Shown: positions 937 through 4,416 of the stretch, piece after piece
Position numbering within the stretch: the first letter of the stretch is position 1
Layout: every line of letters starts with the position of its first letter
From: a virus
Lineage: Duplodnaviria; Heunggongvirae; Uroviricota; Caudoviricetes
Length of the DNA: 18,466 nt
Reading direction: 5' to 3' (one strand)
IMG/VR virus record: IMGVR_UViG_2872164251_000003
Span: 1-18,466 of that record
Made by a program: the position numbers and the translations under genes
The notes under the pieces: generated by a model
Told to the model about the DNA's origin: nothing
The model's database searches: none
Seen by the model: the letters and a program-made list of their open reading frames with translations, nothing else

Positions 937-3900
937 ATGGGTAAAGGCAGCAGTAAGGGGCATACCCCGCGCGAAGCGAAGGACAACCTGAAATCCACGC
1001 AGTTGCTGAGTGTGATTGATGCCATCAGCGAAGGGCCGGTTGACGGTCCGGTGGATGGATTAAAAAGCGTGCTGCTGAACGGTACGCCGGTCCTGGACAG
1101 CGAGGGGAAGACAAACTTTTCCGGTGTTACGGTGGTGTTCCGCGCCGGCGAGCAGGAGCAGACACCGCCGGAGGGGTTTGAATCTTCCGGCTCAGAGACT
1201 GTGCTGGGTACGGAAGTGAAATACGACACGCCGATCACCCGGACCATCACGTCGGCAAACATTGATCGTCTGCGCCTGACCTTCGGTGTGCAGGCACTGG
1301 TGGAAACCACCTCAAAGGGGGACCGGAATCCGTCGGAAGTCCGCCTGCTGGTTCAGATACAGCGTAACGGTGGCTGGGTGACGGAAAAAGACATCACCAT
1401 TAAGGGCAAAACCACTTCGCAGTATCTGGCCTCGGTGGTGGTGGGTAACCTGCCGCCGCGCCCGTTTAATATCCGGATGCGCAGGATGACACCGGACAGC
1501 ACCACAGACCAGCTGCAGAACAAAACGCTCTGGTCGTCGTACACCGAAATCATCGATGTGAAACAGTGCTACCCGAACACGGCGCTGGTCGGCGTGCAGG
1601 TGGATTCAGAGCAGTTCGGTAACCAGCAGGTGAGTCGCAATTATCATCTTCGCGGGCGCATTCTGCAGGTGCCGTCGAACTATAACCCGCAGACGCGGCA
1701 ATACAGCGGTATCTGGGACGGAACGCTTAAGCCAGCATACAGCAACAACATGGCCTGGTGTCTGTGGGACATGCTCACTCATCCGCGCTACGGCATGGGG
1801 AAACGTCTTGGTGCGGCAGATGTGGACAAATGGGCGCTGTATGTCATCGGCCAGTACTGCGACCAGTCAGTGCCGGACGGATTTGGCGGCACGGAGCCGC
1901 GCATCACCTGTAACGCTTACCTGACCACACAGCGTAAGGCGTGGGATGTTCTCAGTGATTTCTGCTCGGCGATGCGCTGTATGCCGGTATGGAACGGGCA
2001 GACGCTGACGTTCGTGCAGGACCGACCGTCGGATAAAGTGTGGACCTATAACCGCAGTAATGTGGTGATGCCGGATGATGGCGCGCCGTTCCGCTACAGC
2101 TTCAGCGCCCTGAAGGACCGCCATAATGTCGTTGAGGTGAACTGGATTGATCCGGACAACGGTCATGAGACGGCGACAGAGCTTGTGGAGGACACGCAGG
2201 CCATTGTCCGTTACGGTCGTAACGTCACGAAGATGGATGCCTTTGGCTGTACCAGCCGGGGACAGGCGCACCGCGCCGGGCTGTGGCTGATTAAAACGGA
2301 ACTGCTGGAAACGCAGACCGTGGACTTCAGCGTCGGCGCAGAAGGGCTTCGCCATGTACCGGGTGATGTCATTGAAATCTGCGATGATGATTATGCCGGT
2401 ATCAGCACCGGTGGTCGCGTACTGGCGGTGAACAGCCAGACCCGGACGCTGACGCTCGACCGTGAAATCACGCTGCCGTCCTCCGGTACCACGCTGATAA
2501 GCCTGGTTGACGGAAATGGCAATCCGGTCAGCGTGGAGGTTCAGTCCGTCACCGACGGCGTGAAGGTGAAAGTGAGCCGGGTTCCTGACGGCGTTGCAGA
2601 ATACAGCGTGTGGGGGCTGAAGCTGCCGACGCTGCGCCAGCGCCTGTTCCGCTGCGTGAGTATCCGTGAGAACGACGACGGCACGTATGCCATCACCGCC
2701 GTGCAGCATGTGCCGGAAAAAGAGGCCATCGTGGATAACGGGGCACACTTTGACGGTGACCGGCGCGGCACGGTGAATGGTGTCACGCCGCCAGCGGTGC
2801 AGCATCTGACCGCCGAAGTCACCGCAGACAGCGGGGAATATCAGGTGCTGGAGCGATGGGACACGCCGAAGGTGGTGAAGGGTGTGAGCTTCCTGCTTCG
2901 CCTGACCGTGGCAGCGGACGACGGCAGTGAGCGGCTGGTCAGCACAGGCAGGACGACGGAAACCACATACCGCTTCAGGCAGCTGGCGCTGGGGAATTAC
3001 AGTCTGACAGTCCGGGCGGTAAATGCCCGGGGGCAGCAGGGCGATCCGGCGTCGGTATCGTTCCGGATTGCGGCACCGGCAGCGCCTGTCACTATTGAAC
3101 TGATACCGGGGTATTTTCAGATAACGGTGGTCCCGAAACTGGCTGTATATGACCCGACGGTGCAGTTTGAGTTCTGGTTTTCGGAAAAGCGGATTGCGGA
3201 TATCAGGCAGGTTGAAACCAGCGCCCGCTATCTTGGCACGGCGCTGTACTGGATAGCCGCCAGTATCAATATCAGGCCGGGCCATGATTATTATTTTTAC
3301 GTTCGCAGTGTGAACACCGTTGGCAAATCGGCATTTGTGGAGGCCGTCGGTCGGGCGAGCGATTATGCGGAAGGTTATCTGAGTTTTTATAAAGGGTTGA
3401 TCAATAAAACGCATCTCGGCAAGGAGTTGTGGACGCAGATTGATAACGGTCAGCTTGCGCCGGACCTGACTGAAATCAGGACGTCCATTACGAATGTCAG
3501 CAATGAAATCACGCAAACCGTCAATAAAACACTGGAAAATCAGAGTGCTGCAATCCAGCAGATACAGAAAGTTCAGGTTGATACAAATAATAACCTGAAC
3601 AGCATGTGGGCTGTGAAGCTGCAACAGATGAAGGACGGACGCCTTTATATTGCGGGTATCGGTGCCGGTATTGAGAATACGCCAGCAGGAATGCAGAGTC
3701 AGGTGCTGCTGGCGGCAGACAGGATTGCGATGATTAATCCTGCGAATGGCAACACAAAGCCGATGTTTGTTGGTCAGGGCGATCAGATATTCATGAACGA
3801 CGTGTTCCTGAAACGCCTGACGGCTCCGACCATTACCAGCGGCGGTAATCCTCCGGCATTTTCCCTGACACCTGGCGGACGGCTGACGGCGAAAAATGCC

Positions 3901-4416
3901 GATATCAGCGGTAACGTGAACGCGAACTCCGGGACGCTCAACAACGTCACGACTAATAAGAACTGTCGGGTTCTGGGAAAATTGTCCGCGAACCAGATTG
4001 AAGGCGATCTCGTTAAAACAGTGGGCAAACCTTTCCCACGGGACTCCCGGGCACCGGAGAGGTGGCCATCAGGGACCATTACCGTCAGGGTTTATGACGA
4101 TCAGCCGTTTGATCGGCAAATTGTTATTCCCGCGGTGGCGTTTCGCGGTGCTAAACATGAGCGGAAGAATAACAATATTTATTCGTCATGCCGCCTGATA
4201 GTGAAGAAAAACGGTGCTGAAATTTATAACCGAACGACCCTGGATAATACGCTGATATATACGGGTGTTATTGATATGCCTGCCGGTCACGGTCACATGA
4301 CGCTGGAGTTTTCTGTATCGGCATGGCTGGTAAATGGCTGGTATCCCACAGCAAGTATCAGCGATTTGCTGGTTGTTGTGATGAAGAAAGCCACTGCAGG
4401 CATCACGATTAGCTGA
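937..4416 (+). CDS. J: Lambda-like tail tip / host specificity protein J (1159 aa)
   Basis: N-terminus [34 protein letters not shown]... and most of the length match lambda gpJ as recalled; RBS gaggaATG; last ~330 aa diverge from lambda. Confidence 0.95.

Follow-up and report, generated by a model that had tools for sequence, protein, structure and literature searches.

Introduction

Lambdoid phages change their porin receptor by modular exchange of the C-terminus of the tail protein J, the textbook route. Lambda gpJ (P03749; PDB 8iyk, 8xck, 8xcj) binds LamB, and replacement of lambda's J by that of 434 (lambda h434) confers OmpC binding (PMC11101478). Phage 21 (phi21) uses LamB as its native receptor, but a single mutation adds OmpC use, and the route from LamB through OmpC to OmpF takes only a few mutations (PMC11336670). 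In lambda, single substitutions at residues 1049 and 1107 change porin use, adding OmpF use. A8 gpJ, solved alone (PDB 9wca) and with OmpC G17 of EDL933 (PDB 9wcb), provides an OmpC complex of the fold considered here. Farther away, the C-terminal region of Gifsy-1 J was found to be 18% identical to that of lambda in the Gifsy-1 paper, which made the comparison with lambda.

The closest experimentally characterized relative is gpJ 1A2, in which the 1A2 receptor-binding domain (RBD) is joined, at lambda residue 964, to the short shaft and prism of lambda. DNA delivery by this chimera into MG1655 lacking both lamB and ompC requires that a compatible OmpC allele be provided, and 20 of 23 natural alleles work (Brödel 2024, PMC11338833). 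It fails on OmpC G1 (the K-12 allele), G2, and G40 (PMC11338833). The 1A2 gpJ has since been used in the anti-STEC vector EB003 (bioRxiv 10.1101/2025.02.28.640725), and DNA-delivery particles derived from lambda have already been redirected to OmpC with this allele class.

Here, we analyzed the J gene of an 18,466-nucleotide stretch of DNA (IMG/VR record IMGVR_UViG_2872164251_000003, positions 1 to 18,466), hereafter the window.

Results and discussion

The window encodes an intact lambda-type J

The J open reading frame occupies positions 937–4416 on the plus strand and encodes 1159 residues with no internal stops. BLASTP aligned it colinearly, end to end, with lambda J (NP_040600, 1132 aa), with identities at 943 of the 1159 positions (81%). 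All six gpJ Pfam families were detected, each scoring above its cut-off, and they followed the expected order from FNIII-A_GpJ at the N-terminus to Ig_GpJ_C at the C-terminus. Both full-length colinear homology and synteny (a remnant of gene I, J, lom, stf, and a DUF4376 gene in order) place the protein in the gpJ family, and window J is therefore an intact tail tip/central fibre protein of the lambda type. Public databases already carry an annotated entry for this exact protein.

Residues 1–815 (positions 937–3381, plus strand) form a lambda-like body consisting of baseplate hub domains and two FNIII/Ig domains (Pfam FNIII-A_GpJ, Phage-tail_3, Ig_J, and Ig_J_second), with 95.3% identity to lambda J. 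Residues 1–836 matched PDB 8iyk_J with an E-value of 0. By homology to 8iyk and 8xck, window J would form trimers at the tail tip. An earlier note on this DNA, made from the sequence alone, proposed that the protein tracks lambda gpJ up to residue 830 or so; the close match was borne out, but the break lies at about residue 816.

Two divergent modules flank a conserved prism

Identity to lambda breaks sharply near residues 816 and 1010, in protein and DNA alike. The first divergent module is the long form of the alpha-helical shaft (AHS, named after Ge & Wang 2024, PMC11101478), which spans residues 816–900 (positions 3382–3636, plus strand). It is 28.2% identical to the shaft of lambda and 28% identical to that of h434, and 87–88% identical to those of phi21, 640R1, WGPS6, and PhiR55_1. 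It is also 28 residues longer than the lambda shaft, the residues without a lambda counterpart falling at about 841–871 (positions 3457–3549).

The shaft is followed by the beta-prism central straight fibre (CSF), residues 901–1010 (positions 3637–3966, plus strand), with Pfam Phage_Tail_Tip covering residues 872–1000. The prism is 75.5% identical to that of lambda and 92–94% identical to those of phi21, 640R1, and WGPS6; the J protein of Stx2a_WGPS6 thus has the long shaft and the prism in common with window J, at 88–93% identity. A 28-residue motif within the prism (residues 952–979, positions 3790–3873), which the earlier note described as retained, is indeed identical to lambda residues 924–951. 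The same note held that the final 150–300 residues or so differ from the LamB-binding domain of lambda. Divergence is real, but it comes in two blocks around the conserved, motif-bearing prism; the last block of about 150 residues is the RBD, whereas the shaft block lies outside the LamB-binding domain.

Synonymous divergence from lambda (dS) was 0.23 in the body and 1.8–2.3, that is, saturated, in the shaft and RBD, which places the C-terminal difference far beyond drift. The dN/dS ratio against lambda was 0.1–0.3 across all J segments. This jump in dS, together with the low dN/dS throughout, indicates that the J modules are old alleles swapped by recombination and not products of decay.

The RBD belongs to the 1A2-type allele class

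The Ig-like RBD comprises residues 1011–1159 and the stop codon (positions 3967–4416, plus strand), with Pfam Ig_GpJ_C covering residues 1030–1159. Its identity is about 39–40% (39.3–39.6%) to lambda, 41.8% to 434, 63% to A8, 67% to phi21, 91.9% to PhiR55_1, and 94.6% to 640R1. The 1A2 sequence is available as OCR-damaged DNA text in the supplement of Brödel 2024; plain tblastn against it gave fragmentary matches, so that a frameshift-tolerant protein-to-DNA alignment was used, and the result was matched to P0004, a natural fragment from E. coli. P0004 agreed with 163 of 168 readable GpJ 1A2 residues, the five mismatches being confined to three visibly OCR-damaged stretches. The window RBD was identical to P0004 at 138 of 149 positions (92.6%), with 11 substitutions and no indels.

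We defined the 1A2-type class as RBDs with approximately 85% identity or more to 1A2/P0004 and no indels, and the window RBD falls within it, with loops of the same lengths. It does not share the receptor-loop residues of the tested 1A2, since L2 departs from it at five of its six positions and L4 at residue 1134. It is not the LamB-binding allele of lambda (lambda residues 983–1132), to which it is 39.6% identical with unrelated loop sequences. Nor does it belong to the phi21/A8-type class (an identity of approximately 77% or higher with phi21, A8, or BP-4795, plus a short L1 and a long L2 of the sequence NSNNQQSYW), given an identity of 63–67% and other loop lengths: the A8 and phi21 RBDs have an L1 4–6 residues shorter and an L2 5 residues longer than those of the window, although they are homologous to it and end in the same 12-residue C-terminal strand. 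The RBDs of 434 and WGPS6, 40–42% identical to that of the window, form a separate class. The motifs DDQPFDRQ and DMPAG, on the top side of the domain, are conserved across RBD classes.

Of 5426 complete E. coli genomes, 3369 carried an RBD of the window's class and 98 carried that of lambda itself; the megablast search with the lambda RBD returned only alleles at least 99% identical to it. Hence, the window RBD belongs to the commonest natural variant, and the LamB-binding RBD of lambda is a rare allele. The homologues listed for the domain were fragments of at most 271 aa, which were used for the RBD alignment only.

Among phage isolates, Escherichia phages vB_EcoS-640R1 and PhiR55_1 encode J proteins colinear with window J over the full length (92.8% DNA identity), but their L2 loops are unlike that of the window. 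A literature search returned no receptor data for either phage and no paper naming 640R1, which a porcine ETEC paper also leaves unmentioned; the one relevant paper on PhiR phages (SNIPE) tested ManYZ dependence and left outer-membrane receptors unassigned, and in a 2026 receptor-prediction preprint GpJ is treated for Drexlerviridae and related phages only.

Differences from 1A2 concentrate in the predicted receptor loops

An AF2 model of the window RBD (pLDDT 79) adopted the gpJ RBD fold, with Foldseek TM scores of 0.78–0.82 to A8 gpJ alone and with OmpC (9wca/9wcb) and to lambda gpJ alone and with LamB (8xck/8xcj); against lambda, with which window J also shares its domain order, the range was 0.80–0.82. 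Four loops are predicted to face the receptor: L1 (positions 4030–4071), L2 (4159–4176), L3 (4240–4248), and L4 (4330–4365), all on the plus strand and all called as the bottom side from strand topology and lambda mutation mapping rather than from coordinates. All four differ from those of lambda. Positions that vary within the class were enriched in predicted L1, L2, and L4 (21 of 35 vs. 17 of 94 elsewhere; Fisher p=8e-6). Moreover, the receptor-switch sites of lambda fall within predicted loops in the alignment: 1011 and 1012 correspond to window residues 1039 and 1040 (L1), 1049 to 1077 (L2), and 1107 to 1134 (L4).

The predicted receptor loops carry 6 of the 11 differences between the window and 1A2-type RBDs. 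Five of these fill L2 (window to 1A2-type, R1076K, K1077E, N1078H, N1079T, and N1080D), which reads ERKNNN in the window and EKEHTD in 1A2, and one lies in L4 (G1134N). In addition, P1032A is at the residue that opens L1, and T1101A falls just ahead of L3. Close relatives from Shigella and enteroinvasive E. coli likewise combine ERKNNN in L2 with G1134 in L4. As the predicted receptor-facing loops hold most of these differences, the fine specificity of the window RBD may differ from that of 1A2.

OmpC is the most likely receptor

The earlier note took divergence from lambda to imply a different receptor. A different receptor is supported here, but that reasoning does not suffice: the phi21 RBD is 48% identical to that of lambda, yet phi21 is a LamB user, and the A8 and phi21 RBDs are 81% identical although A8 uses OmpC and phi21 uses LamB. 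The degree of RBD divergence is therefore no predictor of receptor. The support comes instead from the close homology (92.6%) of the window RBD to the OmpC-dependent 1A2, which makes OmpC the most likely receptor as judged from sequence. Taken together, we consider it likely that window J is an intact modular gpJ, composed of a lambda-like hub/FNIII body, a long shaft, a conserved prism, and a 1A2-type RBD, whose porin is most likely OmpC and not LamB.

In such a protein, the RBD would dock on a porin trimer, most likely that of OmpC, and docking would open the RBD. A twist would then pass up the prism and shaft and open the tail tip. The residues of L2 and L4 probably set the range of OmpC alleles accepted.

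The window RBD might instead bind another trimeric porin (OmpF, PhoE, or OmpN) or another outer-membrane protein, as its L2 and L4 differ from those of 1A2. The share of differences in the predicted loops fits this idea; two of them sit at the counterparts of lambda residues at which one substitution is enough to add OmpF use, and receptor use is labile in the family, as the few steps of phi21 from LamB to OmpF illustrate. However, the two RBDs are 92.6% identical, with four loops of equal length and nearly identical L1 and L3, and natural RBDs of the 1A2-type class show wide variation in L2. Furthermore, the acceptance of 20 of 23 OmpC alleles by the 1A2 RBD suggests that the class is tolerant within OmpC. 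We therefore regard a switch to another protein as unlikely, though less so than the readings below.

A bolder proposal, which we would hold only as a long shot, has two separate parts. The L2/L4 variant (ERKNNN, G1134) would retune the 1A2-type RBD to Shigella OmpC, to OmpC alleles missed by 1A2 and A8 (G1, G2, and G40), or to another porin; and two identical intact J copies, described below, would owe their persistence to selection, serving for instance as a store of host-range modules with which incoming lambdoid phages could recombine, and not to a recent duplication.

It is very unlikely that the window RBD is a divergent LamB binder like that of phage 21, with no change of receptor implied. 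The LamB use of phi21 at 48% identity to lambda, and the 67% identity between the window and phi21 RBDs, would be compatible with that view. Nevertheless, 1A2 delivery into wild-type MG1655 at an MOI of 50 was 5%, compared with 98% for lambda gpJ (PMC11338833), and 1A2 works in lamB-deleted cells given a suitable OmpC; its delivery into MG1655 carrying the EDL933 ompC reached 98.7% (PMC11338833). The L1 and L2 lengths of the window are also unlike those of phi21.

With OmpC as the favoured receptor, the earlier observation on window J is correct but ordinary and opens no new question. The Shigella L2/L4 combination provides one more natural variant whose range of OmpC alleles could be surveyed in delivery vectors.

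J lies in a Shigella flexneri prophage remnant

Positions 1–753 are an IS1 copy with InsA/InsB reading frames on the minus strand (Pfam Zn_ribbon_InsA, HTH_Tnp_IS1, and DDE_Tnp_IS1), whose terminal repeat ends at position 753. The IS1 end abuts and truncates the lambda-type tail gene I, and position 754 is where the window begins to match E. coli prophages. What remains of gene I, a tail assembly gene, is its last 40 codons and the stop (positions 754–876, plus strand), and these encode AQGNVLPVLYGEMRVGSRVVSQEISTADEGDGGQVVVIGR*, which matches the C-terminal end of lambda I exactly. The exact 40-mer across the IS1/gene I junction was not found in the species-representative genome collection. 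Because IS1 removed everything upstream of these codons, no tail can be built from the locus; the window locus is a Shigella flexneri prophage remnant and J a fossil within it. The phrase "ancestral phage" in the earlier note was accordingly apt.

Downstream of J are lom, encoding an Ail/Lom outer-membrane protein (positions 4484–5083, plus strand; Pfam Ail_Lom, E=1.9e-128), and, within positions 5105–7136 on the plus strand, a side tail fibre gene (5105–6562; Pfam phage_tail_N) overlapping the DUF4376 gene (6513–7136). The latter occupies the position of a tail-fibre assembly gene, in the same order as in the E. coli FDAARGOS_944 prophage. Beyond the tail genes lies ipaH (positions 7316–9079, minus strand; Pfam LRR_TTSS and NEL), a type III secretion E3 ubiquitin ligase effector carried as prophage cargo, which matching E. 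coli records annotate as ipaHa/ipaHd. A second, identical J copy is present on the same S. flexneri chromosome, adjoining a frameshifted gene I and with no tape-measure gene called. One chromosome thus carries two intact and perfectly identical J genes of 3.5 kb each in otherwise decayed prophages.

That the C-terminal divergence reflects decay of a dead prophage gene under relaxed selection, rather than a functional alternative allele, is in keeping with the IS1-cut gene I of this remnant and the defects beside the second copy, but it is extremely improbable in view of the intact J reading frame, a dN/dS of 0.10–0.21 in every segment against J of isolates 640R1 and PhiR55_1, the presence of the RBD class in 3369 of the 5426 E. 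coli genomes and of near-identical RBDs in phage isolates, and the retention of DDQPFDRQ and DMPAG across classes.

Minus-strand reading frames inside J at 1867–3624 and 3783–4079 were rejected as genes, having no Pfam matches and lying opposite a constrained sense frame (dN/dS ~0.1). A promoter scan gave three promoter-like sites, with 2.4 expected by chance. Directly past J, a terminator-like hairpin with a T-run (positions 4435–4464, plus strand) was called by consensus scan only. An annotated terminator occupies the corresponding position in phage 21.

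The J gene is intact and differs from that of lambda in two separate blocks

The gene for the tail-tip protein gpJ (J; window 937–4416, + strand) consists of 1159 codons with no internal stops, and BLASTP aligned lambda J with its product colinearly from end to end (943 of 1159 identities). Six gpJ-specific Pfam families were found along the protein in canonical order, namely FNIII-A_GpJ, the Phage-tail_3 hub, Ig_J, Ig_J_second, the Phage_Tail_Tip prism (residues 872–1000), and Ig_GpJ_C (residues 1030–1159), the C-terminal receptor-binding domain (RBD). Moreover, the lambda tail-tip structure 8iyk matched J with an E value of 0. 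The earlier note, whose coordinates of 3400–4416 correspond to residues 822–1159, described a lambda-like body and a retained motif, and both were borne out: residues 1–815 are 95.3% identical to lambda, and the motif [28 protein letters not shown] occupies residues 952–979 (nt 3790–3873), identical to lambda 924–951.

The C-terminal divergence described in the same note is real but does not form one stretch. It falls in residues 816–900 (28.2% identity to lambda) and residues 1011–1159 (39.3%), with a conserved beta-prism between these two blocks (residues 901–1010, 75.5%). Divergence from the LamB-binding domain thus holds for the last ~150 residues, but the block before the prism corresponds to the alpha-helical shaft of Ge & Wang (PMC11101478), which lies outside that domain. 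The window shaft (window 3382–3636) is 28 residues longer than that of lambda; in the alignment, the short form was found in lambda and the lambda hybrid h434, whereas phage 21, 640R1, WGPS6, PhiR55_1, and BP-4795 carry the long form, as in the window.

The J modules appear to be old alleles brought together by recombination

Sliding-window analysis showed that DNA identity to lambda drops from ~85–90% to 25–60% between J gene nt ~2400 and ~2800, returns to 80–89%, and drops again past nt ~3000. Phage 21 and WGPS6 hold 81–95% identity up to nt ~3000 and then fall, and 640R1 and PhiR55_1 remain at 85–97% through to its 3′ end. Against lambda, synonymous divergence was 0.23 in the body and 1.8–2.3 (saturated) in the shaft and RBD; this saturation and the sharp identity switches rule out allelic noise as the source of the divergence. 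Pseudogene decay is likewise ruled out by a dN/dS of 0.10–0.33 in all segments. These sequence comparisons indicate that the J modules are old, constrained alleles assembled by recombination.

The last ~150 residues of the lambdoid J proteins compared sort into four classes, whose frequency was determined by megablast of each allele's final 437 nt against 5426 complete E. coli genomes. The lambda class, with lambda as its member (40% identity to the window RBD), was found in 98 of 5426 genomes, the 434-type class (h434 and WGPS6, 40–42%) in 2110, and the window-type class (640R1 and PhiR55_1, 92–95%) in 3369, with a median of two copies per carrier genome; the phi21-type class (phi21, BP-4795, and A8, 63–67%) gave about 1090 records at ≥90% identity. 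Among the full-length lambda-class matches listed (n = 5), all but one cattle isolate were K-12/BL21(DE3) derivatives or of K-12 serotype. Given 3369 versus 98 genomes, the window-type RBD is the mainstream allele and lambda the outlier.

OmpC is the probable receptor of the window RBD

Divergence by itself tells nothing about the receptor, because the phi21 RBD, only 48% identical to that of lambda, uses LamB as its native receptor, one mutation adding OmpC use (PMC11336670), whereas A8, 81% identical to phi21, uses OmpC and its gpJ structure has been solved with OmpC bound (9wcb). The decisive comparison was with gpJ 1A2, a chimeric lambda gpJ whose DNA appears, with OCR damage, in the supplementary material of Brödel et al. 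(2024). Frameshift-tolerant alignment of this DNA identified a window-type RBD. P0004, a natural E. coli fragment, agrees with 1A2 at 163 of 168 readable residues, the five mismatches falling at three visibly corrupted stretches. Its identity to the window RBD is 92.6%, the two differing by 11 substitutions in 149 positions and no indels.

In MG1655 without lamB and ompC, 1A2 particles delivered the reporter with 20 of 23 natural OmpC alleles, failing with G1 (the K-12 allele), G2, and G40 (Brödel et al., 2024). In wild-type MG1655 at an MOI of 50, delivery was 5% by 1A2 versus 98% by lambda's own gpJ, and 1A2 reached 98.7% in MG1655 carrying the EDL933 ompC. From these delivery results, the RBD class borne by 1A2 would be OmpC-allele-dependent and LamB-independent. 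The hosts on records of phages with a window-type RBD (PhiR55_1, PhiR46_1, and PhiR49_2) are E. coli C or ECOR13, not K-12, which is weakly consistent with OmpC-allele dependence. In the cited delivery figure, the 1A2 and A8 values in panel C (OmpC-EDL933) equal those in panel B (OmpC-MG1655), and panel C was left unused.

An AlphaFold2 model of J residues 1005–1159 (36-sequence alignment, pLDDT 79) gave a nine-strand beta-sandwich. The top four Foldseek matches were A8 gpJ without OmpC (TM 0.80) and with OmpC (0.78), and lambda gpJ without LamB (0.82) and with LamB (0.80). Strand topology of the predicted RBD places four loops on the side facing away from the prism, the predicted receptor side: L1 (residues 1032–1045), L2 (1075–1080), L3 (1102–1104), and L4 (1132–1143). 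This placement is backed by two independent observations. First, conservation across all RBD classes is seen in the motifs on the opposite side ([16 protein letters not shown]). Second, the lambda J residues at which single substitutions add OmpF use (1011, 1012, 1049, and 1107; PMC8890733) correspond in the alignment to window residues 1039 and 1040 (L1), 1077 (L2), and 1134 (L4). Within the window-type class, variable sites cluster in the four loops, at 21 of 35 positions compared with 17 of 94 outside them (Fisher p = 8e-6).

Relative to 1A2, the window RBD has 11 differences; five of them fill L2, and a sixth, at residue 1134, lies in L4. Given the homology to 1A2, OmpC is probably the receptor of the window RBD; given the differences in L2 and L4, the OmpC alleles that it accepts may not be those of 1A2. 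The proposal of a receptor specificity other than that of lambda is therefore supported through resemblance to a tested RBD, not through divergence itself.

The exact window protein is present in public sources as 'host specificity protein J [Shigella flexneri]' on 124 contigs, and modular host-range exchange in lambdoid phages is textbook knowledge. With the protein annotated and its allele class functionally characterised, neither the gene nor the phenomenon is new.

J lies in a prophage locus that cannot build a tail

IS1 occupies window 1–753, and its end cuts into the lambda-type gene I, of which the last 40 codons only (754–876) are left; no other tail genes lie upstream of J in the window copy. 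Thus, the J gene is intact, yet tail assembly from this locus is not possible, which makes the reference to an 'ancestral phage' apt. Downstream of J, Pfam identified lom, a side tail fibre gene (stf), and a DUF4376 gene; the stf ORF (485 aa) and the DUF4376 ORF that follows it, together spanning 5105–7136, overlap by 50 nt, and the homologous stf in E. coli FDAARGOS_944 is annotated as frameshifted. Just downstream of the tail-fibre genes, ipaH (7316–9079, − strand) encodes, as prophage cargo, a 587-aa protein with LRR_TTSS and NEL E3 ligase domains.

GenBank CP032513.1 matches the window at 100% identity over 12,416 nt. Upstream of IS1, it carries lactonase, PrpF-family, and aconitase-family chromosomal genes, among which additional IS1 copies are interspersed. 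The corresponding prophage of E. coli FDAARGOS_944 adjoins ybhB–bioA, which we regard as the classical attachment region of lambda. A second copy in the same chromosome (CP032513.1 1194844–1214323) is 100% identical to window 754–6641 (5.9 kb), covering the end of I, J, lom, stf, and the start of the DUF4376 gene. Upstream, this copy has tail genes Z through K, with gene I frameshifted and no tape-measure gene called, and its ipaH, in the corresponding place, encodes 583 aa. The two identical copies look like the product of recent duplication or of gene conversion between two defective prophages.

Window 9598–18466 forms a patchwork in which fragments of IS3-family transposases (9598–10487 and 14845–16058) are combined with P22/Sf6-like prophage remnants. 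The latter comprise the ejection genes gp16 (10967–12811), gp20 (12808–14214), and an N-terminally truncated gp7 (14224–14757), together with a tailspike gene (16129–16551 and 17147–18466) broken by an IS1 fragment (~16692–17072).
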